Source: Candidatus Adlerbacteria bacterium (GTDB lineage: Bacteria; Patescibacteriota; Minisyncoccia; Phycocordibacterales; SBAW01). From it: a stretch of 64,000 nt of DNA. A program made the position numbers and the translations under genes. Positions 1,029 to 39,503 of this stretch are shown here, in pieces. Below the pieces are notes generated by a model, which was not told where the DNA came from, made no database searches, and saw only the letters and a list, made by a program, of their open reading frames with translations. The stretch spans positions 12,898 to 76,897 of the forward strand of contig JAQBRA010000004.1 of assembly GCA_028286685.1 (NCBI GenBank). The letters run 5' to 3'. Each line of letters opens with the position of its first letter. Position 1 is the stretch's first letter.

Positions 1029-2084
1029 ATGGCCAACTACTTCCAAAACCGGATACTGCCCCTCTTCTCTAACGATGTCGGTATCGACCTGGGCACCGCC
1101 AACACTTTGGTGTACCTGCGCGGCAAGGGCATTGTCGTAACCGAGCCGTCGGTCGTTGCGGTCAATCAGAAAACGGGCCAGGTCGTCGCCGTGGGCACCG
1201 CCGCCAAGCAGATGCTCGGCCGCACGCCGGGCCACCTGGTCGCGGTACGCCCGCTGGTCGAGGGCGTAGTATCGGACTACGAGGCGACCGAGGAGATGCT
1301 TAGCTATCTCATGAGCCGCGCGCAGGGAGTGAGCAAGAAAATGCTCGGACCCCGCGCGGTCCTGGGCGTGCCCTCGGGCATTACCAATGTCGAGGTGCGC
1401 GCGGTCATAGACGCGGCTCGCGGCGCGGGCGCGCGCGAGGTGCATATAGTGGAAGAGCCGGTCGCGGCGGCGCTCGGCATCCGCATGCCCATACGCGAGG
1501 CGATGGGCTCGATGCTCGTTGATATCGGCGGCGGCAACACCGACATTGCGGTTATGTCCCTCGGCGGCATCGTCCGCTCCAAAAACCTGCGCATCGCCGG
1601 CGACAAGCTCAACCAGGACATTATTTCCTACGTGCGCAGTGAGTTTAAGATTTTAATAGGGGAGAAGACCGCCGAGGGGGTCAAGATGGCGATAGGATCG
1701 GTCGTGGAGGGCGACGGCAGCCTCCAGGCCGTGGTGCGGGGGCGCGACCTTATTACGGGGCTCCCGCGCGAGATCGTGATTACCGACTCGGACCTGCGCG
1801 AGGCCATATCGCAGTCCATCGATACGCTCATTGAGGCGGTACGCGAGGTGCTCGAAACGACGCCGCCCGAAATTCTTTCAGATATCATGCGCTCGGGCAT
1901 TGTTTTGGTCGGCGGCGGCGCGCAGCTGCGCGGGCTCGATACGCTCCTGACCCAATGGCTCAAGGTTCCGGTCATGGTAGCCGATGATCCCTTAACTGCA
2001 GTGGCGCGCGGCACCGGCGTCATTTTGGAAAATCTCGACCTGCACCGCGACCTCTTGATTGAAAACGATGGCGATATCTCCTAG
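1029..2084 (+). CDS. mreB: rod-shape-determining actin homologue MreB
   Basis: 351 aa. N-terminal DLGTANTLVY phosphate-1 motif and a GGGNTDIAV segment typical of MreB/actin ATPases. Confidence 0.9.
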   Translation: MANYFQNRILPLFSNDVGIDLGTANTLVYLRGKGIVVTEPSVVAVNQKTGQVVAVGTAAKQMLGRTPGHLVAVRPLVEGVVSDYEATEEMLSYLMSRAQGVSKKMLGPRAVLGVPSGITNVEVRAVIDAARGAGAREVHIVEEPVAAALGIRMPIREAMGSMLVDIGGGNTDIAVMSLGGIVRSKNLRIAGDKLNQDIISYVRSEFKILIGEKTAEGVKMAIGSVVEGDGSLQAVVRGRDLITGLPREIVITDSDLREAISQSIDTLIEAVREVLETTPPEILSDIMRSGIVLVGGGAQLRGLDTLLTQWLKVPVMVADDPLTAVARGTGVILENLDLHRDLLIENDGDIS

Positions 2085-2829
2085 CCCTTTTGACCGGATA
2101 CAGAAGTCCCGGCGGGCCTCGCGCTCCTGGCTGTGGTGGGTGCTGCCCGCCGCACTCCTTATCGGCCTTGCGCTGGCATTTAAAGGACCTGCGGCCGAGC
2201 TTTTCTGGCGCTTGCTGGAGCCCGTCGTGCGTGCGCGTGAGTCATTGCAGTATTCCGAAGCGGTAGCCTTGCGTGCAGAGCTTGCGGCAGCGCAGGCGCG
2301 CCTTATTGACCGCGACGCTTTGTATAAGGAAAATCTCGATCTTAAGGGGCGCTTGGGCCGCAACGACACGCAAACGCCGCGCGTCTTGGCCGGCGTCTTG
2401 CAGCGCTCGCCGTGGGTGCCATACGACACGCTCCTAATCGACGCCGGTGCCGCGCAGGGCGTCGCGGTAGGGGACTGGGTGTCGGCCGGAGGCCAGTCGC
2501 TTATCGGCCGCGTGGCCGAAGTGCAGGCAAGTACCGCGCGTGTCGAGCTCTTTTCCGCACCCGGCCAAGTCCATCAGGCTATGCTTGGCGGCACGAGCAC
2601 GCAGCCGGTGGCAGTTGAAGGCCAGGGCGGCGGCTCGCTGCAGGCGTCGGTGCCCGCAGGTACCGAAGTGTCGGTCGGAGACCCGATTATTTTCCCGGGG
2701 CTCGGCGGCGGCATCACGGCGCTCGTCTCTGCAGTCGACGCGCGGCCTGGAGAGTCGTTTATAGTTATATACATGCGCCTGCCCGCCGATCCCTTCGCGC
2801 TCTTATACGTTGAAGTGCTCAAGCCATGA
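2059..2829 (+). CDS. mreC: rod-shape-determining protein MreC
   Basis: Overlaps the mreB stop. N-terminal transmembrane segment, coiled-coil, then a beta-rich C-terminus (…GDWV…IGRVAEV…). Position is consistent with mreBCD. Confidence 0.7.
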   Translation: MKTMAISPSPFDRIQKSRRASRSWLWWVLPAALLIGLALAFKGPAAELFWRLLEPVVRARESLQYSEAVALRAELAAAQARLIDRDALYKENLDLKGRLGRNDTQTPRVLAGVLQRSPWVPYDTLLIDAGAAQGVAVGDWVSAGGQSLIGRVAEVQASTARVELFSAPGQVHQAMLGGTSTQPVAVEGQGGGSLQASVPAGTEVSVGDPIIFPGLGGGITALVSAVDARPGESFIVIYMRLPADPFALLYVEVLKP

Positions 2830-3116
2830 CCCTTGCCAGCCGCTACATCTACGCCATTACGTTTGCTATAGCCGCGACCGGCTTCCTTTTGCCGTTCTGG
2901 CCTTTGTGCGTTGTCGGCGTGCTTATAGCGGCGCTTTCAGGCCGCTATATTTTCGCCGTTGTTGTAGCGCTTCTTATCGATTTGGGACTGGGCATGCCGA
3001 CGGGCGTATTGCACTACCTCGTCCTGCCATTTACCGTGCTCGCGGTTATAGCGGCGCTTGCGCGCATTTTCGGCGCCGCTTACTTCTTGGACAAGACGCC
3101 CCTCGATAGGCTTTAA
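2826..3116 (+). CDS. mreD: MreD-like small polytopic membrane protein
   Basis: 96 aa, entirely hydrophobic helices. 4-nt overlap with mreC. Synteny with mreBC and PBP2. Confidence 0.55.
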   Translation: MTLASRYIYAITFAIAATGFLLPFWPLCVVGVLIAALSGRYIFAVVVALLIDLGLGMPTGVLHYLVLPFTVLAVIAALARIFGAAYFLDKTPLDRL

Positions 3117-4806
3117 TAGGTGGATGCTCCGCTGGTGGTTTAGGAAAGGCAAGATACGCTCGGAAATACATCCGGACGAAATTTTAATAGACTCCCAAAA
3201 CGTCTCGGACCTGGACCGCGACCAGTTCGAGGGCCGCATCGAGCGGCCGCTTTCCCGCCGGCAGCTGGTGGGCGCAGGGAGCGTCGTGGCCGTGGCAGTG
3301 CTGCTTCTGCTGGTGCGCGCCGGCAGCCTCCAAGTAGTGCATGGGCAGACGTATGCCGAGCAGGCCAAGAACAACCAGCTGACCGAGGAGACTATCTTTG
3401 CTGATCGCGGCACGATCGTCGACCGCAACGGCATCCCCTTGGCCTGGAACGAGCGCGACGAAATAGGCGATGATTTCGCCCGCCGGGCGTATGCCTCCAT
3501 GCGCGGGCTCGCCCATGCGGTGGGCTATACCAAGGCGCCTGCCAAGGACTCTTCCGGCAATTACTTCCGCACCGAGTTCGAGGGGCTCGACGGCGTCGAG
3601 AAGGCGTACAACGCAGAGCTAGGCGGCCAAAACGGGCTGCGCCTCACCGAGACAGACGCGCTTGGGAACGTTGTCTCGGAGGCGACGACGCGCGCGCCGG
3701 CGGCCGGCGCAGAGCTGCGGCTTTCTATCGATGCCAAGGTAACGCAGGGGCTCTACGACGTGCTGGCTAAGAACGCGGGCGCAGCGGGCTTCCAGGGCGC
3801 GGCGGGCGTCATTATGGATGTGCGCACCGGCGAGCTCTTGGCGCTTACCAGTTATCCCGAATACTCGCAGACCGCCATGGTCGAGGGCGACCGGGATTTG
3901 ATAGCCTCTTACAACACCGACAAGCGCCAGCCGTTCCTGGATCGCGCCGTAGACGGGCTCTATGCGCCGGGCTCTATCGTCAAGCCCATCATGGCTGCGG
4001 GCGCTATTTCCGACGGCATCATAGACGAATACAAGCAAATACTTTCAACGGGCTCCATTTCCATACCCAACCAGTACGATCCCAAAAATCCCACCCTATT
4101 CCGCGACTGGCGCGTCAACGGCTGGACCGACGCGCGCCACGCCATTGCGGTTTCCTCCGACGTGTACTTTTACTCCGTGGGCGGCGGCTACCAGGACCAG
4201 CGCGGCATGGGCATTGCCACTATCGACAAGTGGCTGCAGGCCTTCGGGTATGGGCAGGATGCGGGGCTCAAGGGCTTCTCCTCCAAGACCGGCACTATTC
4301 CGACTATCGACTGGAAAGCCAAGACTTTCCCGGACGATCCGACGTGGCGCCTCGGCAACACGTATCACACGGCGATAGGGCAGTTCGGCACGCAGGTCAC
4401 GCCGCTGCAGGCGGTGCGTACCGCAGTCGCCCTGGCCAACAGCGGCACGCTGCTCACGCCGACGCTTATAGCAAGCTCGACCCCGCAAGGCCAAAAGATC
4501 GACATCGACCCGCACGCTCTCCAGGTCGCCCGCGAAGGCATGCGCCTCGGCGTTACCGAGGGCATCGCCACAGGCGTCAAGCTCCCGTATGTCTCTGTTG
4601 CAGCCAAGACCGGCACTGCGCAGATCGGCATGAAGAACGAATACTGGAACGCCTGGATGATAGGCTTCTGGCCATACGAGAACCCCAAGTACGCCTTCGT
4701 AATGATCCTCGATCGGGCTCCCGCGCACACCTCGACCGGCGGAAACGTGGTCATGGCGCAGTTCTTCTCCTGGATGCACGAAAACGCGCCCGAATATCTG
4801 CAATAA
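3058..4806 (+). CDS. mrdA: penicillin-binding protein 2 (peptidoglycan D,D-transpeptidase, elongasome)
   Basis: SxxK (GSIVKP), SxN-like (VSSDVY) and KTGT (AKTGTAQ) active-site motifs. An alternative start at ATG 3124 is possible. Confidence 0.85.
   Translation: MRAFSAPLTSWTRRPSIGFNRWMLRWWFRKGKIRSEIHPDEILIDSQNVSDLDRDQFEGRIERPLSRRQLVGAGSVVAVAVLLLLVRAGSLQVVHGQTYAEQAKNNQLTEETIFADRGTIVDRNGIPLAWNERDEIGDDFARRAYASMRGLAHAVGYTKAPAKDSSGNYFRTEFEGLDGVEKAYNAELGGQNGLRLTETDALGNVVSEATTRAPAAGAELRLSIDAKVTQGLYDVLAKNAGAAGFQGAAGVIMDVRTGELLALTSYPEYSQTAMVEGDRDLIASYNTDKRQPFLDRAVDGLYAPGSIVKPIMAAGAISDGIIDEYKQILSTGSISIPNQYDPKNPTLFRDWRVNGWTDARHAIAVSSDVYFYSVGGGYQDQRGMGIATIDKWLQAFGYGQDAGLKGFSSKTGTIPTIDWKAKTFPDDPTWRLGNTYHTAIGQFGTQVTPLQAVRTAVALANSGTLLTPTLIASSTPQGQKIDIDPHALQVAREGMRLGVTEGIATGVKLPYVSVAAKTGTAQIGMKNEYWNAWMIGFWPYENPKYAFVMILDRAPAHTSTGGNVVMAQFFSWMHENAPEYLQ
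4770..4806. repeat. left copy of a 37-bp direct repeat, equal to the last 12 codons plus stop of mrdA
   Basis: ctggatgcacgaaaacgcgcccgaatatctgcaataa matches 6723-6759 in 36 of 37 positions. Confidence 0.9.
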
Positions 4807-34914: not shown

Positions 34915-35193
34915 TTAGTTTAGATGCCGCTTGCGTTCCTGGCTTTCTCTGAGGAGCGTGCGCATGGAGTCGACTTCTTCGGCCGTTAAGTCCAGCCGTT
35001 CGATATACAGGTCAGCTTGCTCGCGAGTAATTTTGTTCTCGTCAACCCAGCCATCGAGTATGCCCAGCAACGAGCACTTAACGAGCATTTCGGTTTTTTC
35101 TTCAGATAAGGCAAGAAGTCGCCCTTCCCCCACAATGCCTTTGACAGAAAGCTCTCTTATAAGAGCCATTATCTTTGGCGATAGCTGAACCAT
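34915..35193 (-). CDS. hypothetical protein
   Basis: ORF with the terminator downstream. Start chosen at MVQLSPKIMALI. Confidence 0.35.
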   Translation of the reverse strand: MVQLSPKIMALIRELSVKGIVGEGRLLALSEEKTEMLVKCSLLGILDGWVDENKITREQADLYIERLDLTAEEVDSMRTLLRESQERKRHLN

Positions 35194-35480
35194 CCTTGCT
35201 CTCCTCAAGGTAAGTAGAAAGAATCTATAAATCAAAATACCTGAAATATATAGAAAGTCAAGTAGGGAAGTGACTCCCCCAGCTTCCCGAGAAAATATCG
35301 GCAAGACCCCCCTGAGCCTTTAGTATCAACAGTTCTCGGTTAGGGGAGCTGGGCATCTCGGCTAGCCAGAGTAGCCATATAAAGCCCGCTGTAAGCCCGT
35401 ATAAGGCGGCGGGAGAGGCGGATAGATACAAGAGGACCCAAGGCCGGGCCCCCTCCAGCTTCTCCCTATATAAGGGACGC

Positions 35481-35660
35481 AAAAGATATATTGTGCGACA
35501 CATCTTGCACTGATTCCCGATCGAATACGGACCAGTCAAAATGTGAAACTTTTCCACGCCCCCACCCTGCTGGCGGCCCGGCTGAAAAAGTTTTGGATCG
35601 TCGCACGTTCTATCTCAGATAATTATGTTAAAAAACGGTCCGGAGACCCCTCCCCCGAAA
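35481..35660 (+). repeat. copy A of a paralogous ~180-bp non-coding segment (promoter/leader of the HEPN-like gene)
   Basis: Conserved blocks gatatattgtgcgac, tgattcccga, aaaatgtgaaactttt, cc.accc.gc…gcccgg, agttttgg.tc, gacccctcccccg shared with 38241-38425. Confidence 0.75.
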
Positions 35661-36236
35661 ATTGAGATTCAGGAGGGAAGTGCTATTATTTTAGACGTGA
35701 AGCATCAGGACCTGAGGGACAAAATTGATGGCGCTTTTCTCAAGAAAGAATACTTGGAGTCATTCCTCATGCAGAGTGCCTATTTTGAAGCGGTTCTCAA
35801 GTATTTCCTTGAGTTCGTGCATTTCAAGATTATCTATGCTGAAAATGAAAACAAAGAGCATAAGCTAGTAGATATTCTCCAGAATAAGGTCGGCCGCTAT
35901 TCCCTCTTTGAGGTGATAACGATGCTTCGGGATTCCGAAGAGGTTTCCAAATCGGAAGCAGACGAACTGAATAAGTACAGAGAGAAGCGCAATAAAGTTC
36001 TCCATTCTTTGTTCGACGAAATGATGGGCCGAGAAGAGTTCGAAGAAAACCTTAAAAAGGTTGTCGAGTCTGGAAAAGTTATCGCCGAAACTAAGTGGTT
36101 TAAGTCCTTAGTTGAAGGCGTTGAAGATCTCGAAAAGATGTACGAACGTGGAAGATTAAAGAAAGAAAACATGCCGCCTAAGCAAACTGAGCCTCAGAAA
36201 TCCGGAGAGCAGCCTCCTTCCCCTGCTATAAACTAA
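35625..36236 (+). CDS. hypothetical protein with a HEPN-like Rx4H motif
   Basis: AT-rich codon usage. …NKYREKRNKVLHSLFDEMMG… carries the R-x4-H motif; otherwise helical. Confidence 0.5.
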   Translation: MLKNGPETPPPKIEIQEGSAIILDVKHQDLRDKIDGAFLKKEYLESFLMQSAYFEAVLKYFLEFVHFKIIYAENENKEHKLVDILQNKVGRYSLFEVITMLRDSEEVSKSEADELNKYREKRNKVLHSLFDEMMGREEFEENLKKVVESGKVIAETKWFKSLVEGVEDLEKMYERGRLKKENMPPKQTEPQKSGEQPPSPAIN

Positions 36237-36282
36237 TTATGTATACTATCCGTATGTAACCCATAAGCCGTGCGCCACAACC

Positions 36283-36395
36283 ATCACCTTGCGACCAGAG
36301 TCCTGCTACGGGCTCTGATCACTCGCAAGGTGAGTCAGGGTTCCGTAGTGGGACTTTGGTATTAAAAACTAGACGTAGCAGATCACCTTGCGATG
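36283..36395 (+). promoter_or_regulatory. structured leader with a tripartite repeat overlapping the FkbM start codon
   Basis: atcaccttgcga (36283), inverted tcgcaaggtg (36323), and gatcaccttgcgATG (36381) overlapping the start codon. Alternative hairpins are possible. Confidence 0.45.
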
Positions 36396-37109
36396 TTCTC
36401 ACAACTTAAGAGGCGGGTAAGTATTACCCCCTCACCCTTTCCCATACCAGTGGACGGCATGTGGCTCTTCGGGGCCCTGCCCCAGCACATAAGGCACGGC
36501 TACGACGAGAAGAGCACGATTGCCTACTTCCGCCGCCATATTAAGCCTGCCACCGTGTTTATAGACATCGGAGCGAACTACGGCTACTTCACGGTCCTTG
36601 CAGGCAAGCTGGGGGCTACCGTAGAAACCTTCGAACCCGACAAGACTTCTTTCCGCAGAACCTCGTGGAATGTCCGCCTCAATGGCCTTTCCCGTAAAGT
36701 TACCCTGCATAACACCGCAGTGTCAGACACAAGCGGAGTTGCCACGTTCTATATCGACAAGCCCGGATCGGGACTCAATTCCCTGGTTCCAGGGGTTCTC
36801 AAGAATGCCAAGGAAACGCGCGTCACAATCGAGCCGTACGAGGGGTACTACGACTTCTGCAAGATAGACGTGGAGGGCGCGGAGCTTCAGGTCCTCAAAG
36901 GACTGCGCCATAAGGGGATTGTCGTAGCGGAGTTCTGCCCCTCGCGACTGGATGAGATGGGGCTGGGAGCCCGGACCTTTCTCCAGGAAGTGCGCACAAT
37001 GGGGTGGAAAGTCTACAGTATGGACGAAGTGGAGCTGACTGACCAAGAAGCTATCAACCTGGCCGCCCTAGAATATCGGGATACTATCAATCTTTTGCTT
37101 ATTCCCTAA
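36393..37109 (+). CDS. FkbM-family SAM-dependent methyltransferase
   Basis: FIDIGANYGYFTVLAG (FkbM/Methyltransf_21 glycine-rich motif) and …FCKIDVEGAELQVL…. Confidence 0.75.
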   Translation: MFSQLKRRVSITPSPFPIPVDGMWLFGALPQHIRHGYDEKSTIAYFRRHIKPATVFIDIGANYGYFTVLAGKLGATVETFEPDKTSFRRTSWNVRLNGLSRKVTLHNTAVSDTSGVATFYIDKPGSGLNSLVPGVLKNAKETRVTIEPYEGYYDFCKIDVEGAELQVLKGLRHKGIVVAEFCPSRLDEMGLGARTFLQEVRTMGWKVYSMDEVELTDQEAINLAALEYRDTINLLLIP

Positions 37110-37245
37110 GCCCCATGAAGCGCCACTGGTACCGCTCCTCAGCAGAGATACCGCCTGCCCTGCCCCGCTCTCCGGGGAGACGGGGGCCAGGAAAGAAGAC
37201 GATCATCCTGTGGGAGGAAGGGAGAGACGGTCCCCGAGCATACAA

Positions 37246-37272
37246 CAAGGCCCCCTAGTGGGGGCTTTTGTT
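37246..37272. terminator. bidirectional terminator between the FkbM and protease genes
   Basis: aaGGCCCCCtagtGGGGGCttttgtttt. Confidence 0.65.
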
Positions 37273-37839
37273 TTAACGGCGTCCCTTTTTGGATTTTCGA
37301 GGGTTAGCGGCGCGGTTTATTGCCCGTTTGGCCTTCTCCTCTTCAAACCTATTCCAGTTCTCCACCTCTCCAATAAAATCAAATTCATGCACGGACGGTA
37401 TGCGGAACGACGCTACAGTTTTTCCTCCTTTATTAGTCAGAGCAAAATCTCCTTGAGTGAGAATGTCCATTCCGACAATAACTTCAAAATCAGGCTGGTC
37501 GGTTAGGTTGGCTTGGATGACCCTCAGTTTCGGAAACTTTACCCTACCGTCACACATAGAAAGTTCCTCAATAACGAACACCGGGACGTCACTGACCTTT
37601 CCTGCGGCTGTGCTCGACTCAGTAAGTCCCACTGACTGTAAGCTCATTTCCTGCACGAGTTCGGCTGATACGAATGTATGTGTCGCGCCAGTATCGACAA
37701 GTGCCGGGTACACTTTAGAGGTACCGGAGTCGTTCGTTATTTGTACTGGAATGACGATGCGATTGGCCGGACCAGAGAACCGCATTGACCAAGCTTCATG
37801 GCGTTCCATTTTAGTAGATAGCGGTTCTAGGCGAGGCAA
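37273..37839 (-). CDS. retropepsin-like (clan AA) aspartic protease
   Basis: ALVDTGATHTFVS (DTGA catalytic motif) and a later hydrophobic-GMDIL flap-like segment. Confidence 0.65.
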   Translation of the reverse strand: MPRLEPLSTKMERHEAWSMRFSGPANRIVIPVQITNDSGTSKVYPALVDTGATHTFVSAELVQEMSLQSVGLTESSTAAGKVSDVPVFVIEELSMCDGRVKFPKLRVIQANLTDQPDFEVIVGMDILTQGDFALTNKGGKTVASFRIPSVHEFDFIGEVENWNRFEEEKAKRAINRAANPRKSKKGRR

Positions 37840-38059
37840 AAGAGGCCGTGTAGCTGTCTACTCCTGGCGATACCTCCTGTAGAGAAAAATTTCCACGGCC
37901 AAATTTCTCAACTGCAAAATCATACGCTTCTGCAAGTGTATTCTTTACTTCGAGAATCTGATCGTCTTTAAGGATTAGAGTTTTACCATTGTACTTAGCC
38001 ACCAATTCGTCTTGGTGATCCTTGTAAAATTGTAGCGCCAAGGCGTGGTTTGATGCCAT
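37811..38059 (-). CDS. DUF5678-like small protein, partner of the aspartic protease
   Basis: 82 aa. …AKYNGKTLILKDDQILEVKNTLAEAYDFAVEKFGRGNFSLQEV matches the DUF5678-type pattern. Overlaps the protease ORF by 29 nt. Confidence 0.5.
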   Translation of the reverse strand: MASNHALALQFYKDHQDELVAKYNGKTLILKDDQILEVKNTLAEAYDFAVEKFGRGNFSLQEVSPGVDSYTASFASPRTAIY

Positions 38060-38240
38060 GCCCTCACTATACCAAAACGCTTCGATATAGCTAGCACGAA
38101 TCCCCTGTTTTTAGCAGGGTAAAAAGTCCTTTAATATGGCTTCATTTTCCACCTCGCCCATAAGAGTATTGCTCCCCTCCCAAGAGGTATTTATTCAAAT
38201 AGCCGAGACGTACCTGCAGCATAGCCACTCCAGCGTTCGC

Positions 38241-38425
38241 AAAACGATATATTGTGCGACGTATATGCTATTGATTCCCGACCGGGTTGAGTCTGCTTAA
38301 AATGTGAAACTTTTAGAGTCCCTACCCCGCCGCCGCGCCCCGGAAGATAGTTTTGGGTCCGGTCTCAATTCCCTCCGCTCTTTTTATAAATTTTCTGCAA
38401 AATTTCTCCAAAAGACCCCTCCCCC
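38241..38425 (+). repeat. copy B of the paralogous non-coding segment, followed by a terminator
   Basis: ~70% identity to copy A across ~180 bp, including the homologue of the HEPN gene's 5' end but no ATG. Ends at terminator 38459-38485. Confidence 0.75.
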
Positions 38426-38458
38426 GTTTTTTCAAAATTTGGGTAGGGGACCTAATAA

Positions 38459-38485
38459 AAAAGCCGCGGCATGCCGCGGCTTTTG
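38459..38485. terminator. bidirectional terminator
   Basis: aaaaaaGCCGCGGCatGCCGCGGCttttgac. Confidence 0.7.
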
Positions 38486-38503
38486 ACTTTTTCGCCGAGG
38501 CTA

Positions 38504-38764
38504 TTAATTGAGCCTCTTTGGTTTAACGTCTGGATTGTCTTCCAAAACCTTTTCTTGCAGGTAGCCGGCGGGTACTATGCTGATCGATACAATCGATATC
38601 TTGCGCTTCTTGTATCGGTCGAGAAATTCTTCCGCTTCGCGCCATGCTGCTTTGGGGTCCGGATAGGCAGTTCCGACTTTTTTCATCTGCAGCAGCAAGT
38701 TGTCCTCGCTATATGTTTCAGTGAGAATTCCTTGCCACATCCCTAGATTTTCTGCGTCAGCCAC
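38504..38764 (-). CDS. hypothetical protein
   Basis: 86-aa ORF immediately upstream of the terminator. Confidence 0.35.
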   Translation of the reverse strand: MADAENLGMWQGILTETYSEDNLLLQMKKVGTAYPDPKAAWREAEEFLDRYKKRKISIVSISIVPAGYLQEKVLEDNPDVKPKRLN

Positions 38765-38837: not shown

Positions 38838-39503
38838 ATGATGAAGAGGATGAGCTACGCAGACAAGATAGGCGCCCTCCTCTCCCCTGCTGAGCGGGCG
38901 GTTTTTATAAAGTTGAACACGCCACAGAAGGTGCAGGACTACTTGGACGCCATGCCACTTAACTTTGAGGTACGCGGCGAAGAAGGCATATACAGCCCAC
39001 GAGAGGTATTAAAGAAAAAGAAGGCCCAATGCATGGAAGGGGCGCTTTTAGCAGTAGCAGCGCTCGAGTACAACGGCCAGCGGGCCTACTTGCTTGATTT
39101 GCGCACGCCCGAGTACGATTACGATCATGTGGTCGCTTTGTTTAAGGTAGGCGGCCGGTGGGGCGCCATAAGCAAAACAAACCACCCGGTGCTGCGGTGG
39201 CGCGACCCGGTGTACACAAGCGTGCGCGAGCTCGCAGTCTCATACTTTCACGAGTACTTCCTTTTTAGCGGCGAGAAGACTCTTAAGTCGCACTCTGACG
39301 CATTCTCCCTGCACCCCTACCCACTTGAGCGGTGGCTCACTACAGAAGATGACTTGGATTGGCTGGCCACCGAGCTTGATAAAGCAAAGCACTTCCCTAT
39401 TGCATCACCCAAGGCGATGAAGTCGCTGCGTCGTGCGTCCAAGATCGAGCGCAAAGCGACCGAGATGGTCGAGTGGAAGGATCCGTCAAAAAAGAAAGCT
39501 TAA
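38838..39503 (+). CDS. hypothetical protein, possible transglutaminase-like/papain-fold Cys-His-Asp peptidase
   Basis: CMEGALLAVAALEYNG … DHVVALF … weak Cys/His/Asp arrangement. Confidence 0.4.
   Translation: MMKRMSYADKIGALLSPAERAVFIKLNTPQKVQDYLDAMPLNFEVRGEEGIYSPREVLKKKKAQCMEGALLAVAALEYNGQRAYLLDLRTPEYDYDHVVALFKVGGRWGAISKTNHPVLRWRDPVYTSVRELAVSYFHEYFLFSGEKTLKSHSDAFSLHPYPLERWLTTEDDLDWLATELDKAKHFPIASPKAMKSLRRASKIERKATEMVEWKDPSKKKA

Follow-up and report, generated by a model that had tools for sequence, protein, structure and literature searches.

A cassette between a dif-type site and a degenerate copy in Candidatus Adlerbacteria: a likely Xer-dependent integration

Examples of integrative mobile elements exploiting Xer (IMEX) are the Vibrio cholerae elements CTXphi, VGJphi, and TLCphi, as well as the genetic island of gonococci, which is flanked by dif and a degenerate site, difB. 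In the plasmid Xer sites cer and psi, the core is accompanied by accessory sequences. Here, we analyzed a 64,000-nucleotide stretch of contig JAQBRA010000004.1 from a Candidatus Adlerbacteria bacterium (the window), in which a 2.76-kb cassette lies between two related non-coding segments, copy A on its left and copy B on its right. Each segment starts within a 28-bp dif-like site, intact in copy A and degenerate in copy B, and we consider it probable, well short of certain, that the cassette entered the chromosome by Xer recombination at dif as an IMEX-like element.

As in IMEX, the element lies at a chromosomal dif, has an apparently functional dif at one end and, as a direct repeat, a degenerate dif-like site at the other (both on the plus strand, 2761 bp apart), and lacks an integrase gene; in related genomes, filamentous-phage-like elements are found at this same site, and related elements or their remnants appear to stack beside dif (for the TLCphi context, see PMC9226527). 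It differs from IMEX in its host, a member of Patescibacteria (the candidate phyla radiation, or CPR), in a different and more palindromic site, in having no phage, replication, or transfer genes, and in that its mobility, along with catalysis by Xer, passage through a circle, and the source of the element, is read here from sequence layout alone. In addition, all eight cases that we observed have the degeneration in the distal site and, within it, in the left arm.

Small cargo without an integrase between Xer sites is also found in Acinetobacter, whose plasmids and chromosomes contain dif (pdif) modules (PMC6449649, PMC13141974, PMC12907356). These measure 0.5–5 kb and often carry toxin-antitoxin or adaptive genes, a cargo broadly comparable to the HEPN-like, methyltransferase, and protease/DUF5678 genes of the window. 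Those modules are mostly on plasmids and their sites alternate in orientation (XerC-XerD, then XerD-XerC), whereas the sites described here are direct repeats at the apparent chromosome terminus; given that both lie on the plus strand, we rejected a module of the Acinetobacter type. Among the described chromosomal systems (dif/XerCD, difSL/XerS, difH/XerH, and archaeal dif/XerA; PMC3025954, PMC2731167, PMC2958812), both the canonical and the single-recombinase forms share with our site the length of 28 bp, the 11-6-11 arrangement, the AT-rich centre, and the terminus location, while the arm sequences ATGTCGYAAAA and TTGTGCGACRY differ from those of these systems. The proposed mechanism is a known one, and the novelty would lie in the host group, the site sequence, and this cargo. 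We found no published dif of Patescibacteria and no Xer-dependent element of CPR bacteria in the searchable literature, which omits most subscription journals.

The 28-bp site and its genomic context

An earlier note, made from the sequence of the window, had described two paralogous non-coding segments bracketing a cassette of low G+C content. We found that this repeat pair is real: positions 35478–35657 and 38238–38426 are identical at 130 of 192 aligned positions (68%, 15 gap columns; E = 8e-16 in BLASTN against the window), and the sequence blocks quoted in the note are identical in both copies (Table 1). The copies differ by indels and are thus not conserved as coding sequence. Their similarity holds without block 1, the 28-bp site, as the remaining bodies (35500–35720 and 38261–38500) still match each other (E ~1e-8), with a local alignment score of 44 that none of 1000 shuffles reached. 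Neither BLASTN of each copy nor an nhmmer profile of the pair detected a third copy in the 64-kb window. The low G+C content was also borne out, at 49.4% for 35500–38240 and 42.8% for the first gene, compared to 56.9% for the window.

Block 1 is a 28-bp site with the consensus ATGTCGYAAAA-GATATA-TTGTGCGACRY. Across 138 distinct contexts, conservation extends over 28–29 bp, from 8 nt left to about 3 nt right (−8 to +20) of the 18-mer AAAGATATATTGTGCGAC. The arms, ATGTCGTAAAA and ATGTCGCACAA (the latter being the reverse complement of the right arm), match at 9 of 11 positions around the 6-bp centre GATATA, which corresponds to the architecture of tyrosine-recombinase core sites and specifically of dif, with about 28 bp made up of two inverted ~11-bp arms and a centre of 6–8 bp. 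In the common 11-6-11 register, the site agrees with Bacillus subtilis dif at 18 of 28 positions and with Escherichia coli dif at 16 of 28 (reference sequences from PMC3025954), which is above chance and far from a match at the level of a hidden Markov model. The nearly perfect inverted arms suggest that a single recombinase may act on this site.

The 18-mer had 27 exact matches in IMG/VR viral contigs and at least 120 in metagenome contigs. Among the matches listed, the 120 metagenome matches were on 120 different contigs, eight of which measured 336–914 kb, although these are contigs and not whole genomes. The hosts named by the sources were Saccharibacteria or Saccharimonadaceae (for proteins adjoining the site on three contigs), and site-bearing loci ranged from 30% to 55% G+C. 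Given that the site is present both in the Adlerbacteria window and on Saccharibacteria contigs, it appears to be common to distant classes of Patescibacteria. A profile of both copies also matched two related loci, L005 and L008, just upstream of an orthologue of the transglutaminase-like gene that lies to the right of the cassette in the window, and the matching sequence, CGCAAAAGATATATTGTGCGAC, is identical to block 1. A non-coding 22-mer has thus been kept while proteins of these loci and of the window are only ~60% identical, which argues for strong constraint.

The context of the site in related loci is that of a replication terminus. In 20 loci having at least 3 kb on both flanks, open reading frames (ORFs) directed toward the site amounted to 57,129 aa and those directed away to 9,422 aa, and in 15 of these loci the GC skew of the left side exceeded that of the right side, with a mean difference of 0.11; gene orientation and GC skew therefore both switch at the site. 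Recurrent neighbours encode an M23 peptidase, GluRS, MurG, FtsW, FtsQ, an S41 peptidase, and an exonuclease, all directed toward it. In five loci, a gene of the Xer recombinase family was detected 0.3–0.9 kb from the site (XerC/XerD models, E ~1e-57 to 1e-59), similarly to the XerS and XerH systems. Because the site occurs at a point of gene convergence and GC-skew sign change, we are highly confident in considering block 1 a dif-type Xer site of Patescibacteria. It would accordingly mark the replication terminus, where Xer recombinases resolve chromosome dimers. A near-invariant 28-bp dif could serve as a terminus anchor for the fragmented genomes of this huge and mostly uncultured group, and the site is a candidate landing pad for CPR genetic tools.

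Several other identities were considered for this block and its surroundings and dropped. An NrdR box agrees with the right half of the site, though not with its left half or with the genes downstream. A replication-terminator (Ter) site was rejected given that the site is single, palindromic, and bounds prophages as a direct repeat, and the template and variable repeats of a diversity-generating retroelement given that there is no reverse transcriptase and that mismatches are not adenine-specific. A LexA box, a CRISPR repeat, and a rolling-circle origin hairpin were likewise discarded.

We also made a number of minor observations on the site. Where an Xer-family gene is linked to it (L104, L127, L157, L077, and L056), the gene lies in every case on the side of the left arm, with transcription leading away from the site, a linkage that recalls XerS and XerH. 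Genes for the M23 peptidase, GluRS, and MurG are on the left-arm side in 33 of 38 loci (L038–L157) and on the right-arm side in the window, so that the window and, judging from gene order, L005 have the site in the opposite orientation relative to these neighbours. An additional left-arm-like motif, ATGTGTCGCATAA, is present 13 nt left of the site in L008 (2262–2275) and at the equivalent place in L089 and L153; in these three loci the arm adjoining the centre has itself diverged, and the motif may be a duplicated or displaced arm. Finally, one site-bearing viral contig (L034) has ~20 clustered tRNA genes at 1711–4150, indicating that a tailed-phage-like genome also has the site.

The junctions of the cassette

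The two sites of the window are not equivalent. On a position weight matrix with a maximum of 48.6 bits, shuffles of the window reached at most 10.5 bits, and besides these two sites nothing in the window exceeded the shuffle maxima. Copy A has the same left arm, GGGACGCAAAA, as the only site in the related locus L047, and the flank to the left of copy A is similar to that of L047 (local score 22, reached by 0 of 2000 shuffles) and of L005 (score 12, p = 0.006). In copy B, the centre and right arm are intact, while one additional C, located after AAAA and before GATATA, displaces the left arm by 1 nt; the low score of this site arises because the left arm is thereby out of register. The left flank of copy B had no such similarity to L047 or L005 (p = 0.1–0.3). 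Based on this orthology of left arm and left flank, the resident dif appears to be that of copy A, and copy B would form the distal junction, its left arm being foreign. No third degenerate site of at least 8 bits was found before the transglutaminase-like gene.

The cassette is absent from the equivalent place in relatives. In L047, where the ABC transporter ATPase is 87% identical to that of the window, the left flank is followed by one site, a non-coding stretch of ~200 nt, and then the transglutaminase-like gene. In L005, the exonuclease and transglutaminase-like genes are 1.8 kb apart with different genes between them, indicating a place of variable content flanked by conserved genes. No counterpart of the four cassette genes, or of the 86-aa gene to the right of copy B, was found in L047, L005, L008, L089, L153, or any other related locus. 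Among the explanations that the earlier note had offered, the att-like boundaries of a mobile cassette are the one supported, and can be specified as a chromosomal dif in copy A and a degenerate dif-like site in copy B.

The bodies, i.e., the ~160 nt to the right of each site, point to the reverse polarity. The copy B body resembles the L047 stretch between dif and the transglutaminase-like gene (score 27, 0 of 1000 shuffles), with which it shares ATTTGGGTAGGGGACCT and a C-rich block. DNA right of dif is also similar to the copy A body in L086 (score 24, 0 of 1000 shuffles) and in L047 (score 16, p = 0.003). The L086 flank is related to both bodies (scores 19–24) and ends in a terminator facing a convergent gene. 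L047 and L086 thus indicate that a flank of this type sits right of dif in the group, and on these alignments we take the copy B body to be the resident chromosomal flank and the copy A body to have arrived with the element. Copy B had been described as a gene-less pseudo-copy, which is accurate for its 28-bp site only, given that for the body the polarity is reversed, with B resident and A incoming.

This arrangement is what Xer-dependent integration would leave. A circular element without an integrase, bearing a site of its own with a good centre and right arm and a poor left arm, would recombine with the chromosomal dif via the host Xer recombinase. The left, proximal junction would regain a full dif, so that dimer resolution would be preserved, whereas the right, distal junction would inherit the poor left arm, which would make excision inefficient. 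Because the copy A flank would have come with the element, the element most likely derives from DNA next to dif in a related bacterium or is one of a family stacking at dif.

Comparable loci were found when related loci were scanned with the position weight matrix, which returned a second site of at least 16 bits in nine of them. In seven of the nine (L027, L029, L033, L035–L037, and L121), a consensus site is followed 2.2–5.9 kb to the right by a second site in the same orientation, which keeps GATATATTGTGCGAC and has an unrelated left arm. End-to-end similarity in all seven starts inside the site and extends 44–384 nt to the right, with 61–95% identity, as it does in the window. Six of them (all except L121) hold inovirus-like elements of ~5.4 kb in low-GC genomes, the hosts of which are probably Saccharibacteria. 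For the element in L033 (2058–7521), reading of the translations (no domain search was run) pointed to a Zot-like ATPase, a large membrane protein, a protein bearing an HUH-type motif, and small proteins, and we consider it an integrated inovirus-like element because murG-like and ftsQ-like host genes are outside the sites. L121 instead has a 2.2-kb cassette (1503–3745) with ORFs of 94, 247, and 155 aa, adjoining an ftsQ-like gene (no domain search was run). Inoviruses were previously reported in CPR hosts, in a study whose main text mentions neither dif nor Xer (Roux et al., 2019; PMC6813254). In L033-type loci, a promoter comes after each site copy, together with one member of a set of paralogous genes of 77–78 aa, which suggests stacked elements.

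These loci also bear on a different origin for the repeat pair, a local duplication at the terminus without any mobile element, in which unequal sister exchange at dif and a pseudo-site, or gene conversion, would have produced the two copies and the genes would have accrued separately. We regard this as unlikely. It would be consistent with the variable content among relatives of the region from the exonuclease and tRNA-Pro to the transglutaminase-like gene, with the mixed G+C content of the cassette (42.8% to 54.8%), as if its parts came from several sources, and with the fact that the two bodies are closer to each other (score 44) than the copy B body is to its L047 orthologue (27). However, homology begins exactly within the recombination site and excludes the left flank, and across seven independent loci, six of them inovirus-like, it is without exception the distal site that is degenerate, and in its left arm. 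Furthermore, bodies at 68% identity are too diverged for a recent event, yet the 15-nt centre and right arm are identical.

Several observations nevertheless weigh against integration at dif as we propose it. The relatives with an empty site belong to other species, in which a neighbouring protein is 58–64% identical. Exact-protein look-up returned no other strains of the window species, and protein look-ups and the contexts of FkbM homologues revealed no excised circle, no empty site in the same species, and no further occurrence of this cassette at another dif. The cassette has no replication or transfer genes, and there was no Xer gene among the window ORFs tested. The terminus signal in the window is weak, as the cumulative skew climbs to ~28 kb and then stays flat without a peak, and gene orientation shifts only moderately, from mostly plus to mostly minus strand near 39 kb. 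Lastly, the two bodies share exact blocks of 10–16 nt, such as TGATTCCCGA and AAAATGTGAAACTTTT, that are lacking in the L047 flank and in L086, which hints at a closer donor, gene conversion, or a function.

If the Xer-dependent reading holds, the terminus would be a hotspot of gene gain in these very small genomes, which filamentous-phage-like elements and small, possibly defence-related cassettes enter via the host recombinase alone, and the non-coding paralogues of the window would be explained as an ordinary integration scar.

Table 1. Coordinates of the features of the cassette, its two ends, and its right-hand neighbours in the window.
Feature	Position	Strand	Remarks
Chromosomal flank left of dif	35430–35473	+	orthologous to relatives
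Copy A site, probable resident dif-type site	35474–35501	+	GGGACGCAAAA-GATATA-TTGTGCGACAC; 38.4 bits
Block GATATATTGTGCGAC	35485 and 38246		exact in both copies
Copy A body, apparently brought in with the element	35502–35680	+	non-coding; blocks 2–5; terminal C-rich hairpin
Block AAAATGTGAAACTTTT	35538 and 38299		exact in both copies
Inverted partial dif centre and right arm	35600–35614	-	GATAGAACGTGCGAC (also GTCGCACGTTCTATC); 3 mismatches to block 1 pattern
Cargo gene 1, HEPN-like, 203 aa	35625–36236	+	nearly orphan
Block AGACCCCTCCCCCG	35644 and 38413		exact in both copies
Block TGATTCCCGA			exact in both copies
Structured leader of methyltransferase gene	36237–36392	+	155 nt; minimum free energy -58.1 kcal/mol, z = -4.5
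Cargo gene 2, FkbM-family methyltransferase	36393–37109	+	Pfam PF05050 3e-9; phrog_8156 3e-23
Cargo genes 3 and 4, one operon	37273–38059	-	protease and DUF5678
Retropepsin-like aspartyl protease	37273–37839	-	Pfam PF13650, PF13975; weak PADLOC PDC-M08B matches
DUF5678 protein	37811–38059	-	Pfam PF18929
Copy B site, probable pseudo-dif	38235–38262	+	GTTCGCAAAAC-GATATA-TTGTGCGACGT; 19.0 bits ungapped
Copy B body, apparent resident flank	38263–38452	+	non-coding; ends in hairpin CCCCUCCCC / GGGUAGGGG
Bidirectional intrinsic terminator	38459–38484	.	11-bp stem, 7 G-C pairs, T runs on both sides; also ends convergent 86-aa gene
86-aa gene	38504–38764	-	between copy B body and conserved neighbour
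Transglutaminase-like gene	38838–39503	+	conserved right-hand neighbour of dif in lineage

Possible roles of the non-coding body

Compared to the site, the body is poorly represented elsewhere. A search for homologues of blocks 2–5 in all 157 related loci gave weak, position-matched matches in L047 and L086 only. BLASTN of copy A against phage and plasmid collections returned nothing relevant, a GTDB scan for blocks 1 and 2 combined returned two chance matches without the other blocks, and a viral scan for blocks 2 and 3 returned no match.

The earlier note had also proposed a duplicated promoter or leader. Under this explanation, the segment would be a promoter or 5′ leader for the gene to its right, ancestrally the transglutaminase-like gene and in copy A the HEPN-like gene, and the dif-like block would be incidental. 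Homologous DNA of ~200 nt does lie directly upstream of the transglutaminase-like gene in L047, and in L005, L008, L089, and L153 the orthologue starts 30–45 nt after the site, so that its promoter must overlap or abut the site. A TTGACA-17-TAAAAT promoter directly follows the site in low-GC loci, and in copy A, block 5 can pair with AGGAGGG and a sigma-70-like promoter is present at 35662–35689. What this explanation does not account for is a near-invariant 28-bp element, the most conserved block of the pair, that occurs in loci of 30% to 55% G+C, once per contig among the matches listed, at the point of gene convergence. In addition, the homologous flank of L086 leads into a terminator and a convergent gene, and copy B is separated from its downstream genes by a terminator and an antisense gene. 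We therefore find it quite unlikely that the locus as a whole originated in this way, while a promoter or leader as a secondary role of the ~160-nt body would be compatible with Xer-dependent integration.

Folding analyses bear on another proposal of the note, that the segments are paralogous small-RNA genes. In the form considered here, copy B would give a 150–240-nt transcript that ends at the hairpin or terminator and copy A would be a leader version. The fold of copy A is more stable than those of its shuffles (plus strand, z = −2.8; minus strand, z = −4.0), a hairpin at block 5 is found in all four related flanks (in copy A, CCCUCC pairs with GGAGGG at 35673–35678) and is followed by a U run in L086, and one compensatory change favours a stem that block 2 may form with the TTTGGRTC block. 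However, copy B folds no better than shuffles (z = +0.87 and +0.27 on the plus and minus strands, respectively) and has no promoter-like site upstream, and neither L047 nor L086 has kept blocks 2 and 3. The alignment fold of the four flanks contained only the C-rich hairpin of block 5, at −3 to −5 kcal/mol and with almost no covariation. Rfam searches, made at gathering thresholds for the window and at E up to 10 for 35200–38700, gave nothing beyond terminator look-alikes, and in 17 related loci they gave nothing at the site. With neither a covariance-model match nor a covarying structure in the four flanks, the proposal is unsupported, and we consider small-RNA genes very improbable here.

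The favourable fold of copy A is explained by an inverted partial dif arm located ~100 nt right of the copy A site, which pairs with 35485–35499 in the folds and is missing from copy B and L047. Such an arm is not enriched elsewhere, as GTCGCA occurs within 300 nt right of the site in 2 of 103 other sites. The combination of the copy A site and this inverted partial arm recalls the folded attP of CTXphi.

A functional role of the ~160-nt flank as a module of Xer elements was also considered, in which it would be, for example, accessory DNA governing which way recombination proceeds, as at cer and psi, or, alternatively, the copy A body would be one half of a folded single-stranded attP as in CTXphi. 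As at cer and psi, ~160–200 bp of non-coding DNA on one side of the core appear to have been copied together with it, a resemblance only; unlike there, the flank is poorly conserved outside the lineage. In either form, we judge such a function decidedly improbable. If true, it would mean that small cassettes enter CPR chromosomes as single-stranded DNA through dif.

Cassette genes and chromosomal neighbourhood

Pfam, PADLOC, and PHROG searches found no recombinase domain in the four cassette ORFs, in line with an IMEX, which relies on no recombinase of its own. Weak PADLOC matches of the cargo to a CARF_HEPN-type domain, mad2, and PDC-M08B indicate that it could be defence-related. The first gene had been labelled HEPN-like in the earlier note, and this label finds weak support in a match of residues 86–166 to PADLOC CARF_HEPN (E = 5e-4) and in the motif RNKVLH, which has the R-x4-H spacing and thus fits R-x4-6-H, while Pfam gave no match. 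This protein is identical to one from a Candidatus Adlerbacteria MAG, and only one distant homologue (34% identity) was found among 5.8 billion proteins. For the FkbM-family methyltransferase, the closest homologues come from short contigs that have no dif site in their vicinity.

Three start candidates were noted for the HEPN-like ORF, an ATG at 35625 without a ribosome-binding site, an in-frame ATT at 35685, and a GTG at 35697. An AGGAGGG at 35671–35677, with which the C-rich block 5 can pair, lies 7 nt before the in-frame ATT, and the sigma-70-like promoter in this region reads TTGAGA-16-TATTAT with a TG. The structured leader between the first two genes contains the 10-mer CACCTTGCGA three times, at 36285 (+), 36323 (−), and 36384 (+), compared to 0.17 expected per window, and the last of these overlaps the ATG at 36393. 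This suggests alternative pairings in the leader by which the FkbM start codon could be concealed; no Rfam match was found for 36237–36392.

In the left part of the window, an RNase T-like exonuclease gene, tRNA-Pro, and ORFs of 90, 148, and 92 aa precede copy A. In the right part, the cassette is followed by copy B, the terminator, the 86-aa ORF, the transglutaminase-like gene, and the ABC transporter. The strong terminator that the earlier note had placed after copy B was confirmed, and it is bidirectional. The 86-aa gene had no Pfam, PADLOC, or PHROG match, and tblastn gave no match in any related locus. The same holds for the other minus-strand ORF of this region, that of 92 aa (34915–35193), which has no family match and no counterpart in related loci, and the two ORFs may be remains of earlier insertions at the hotspot.

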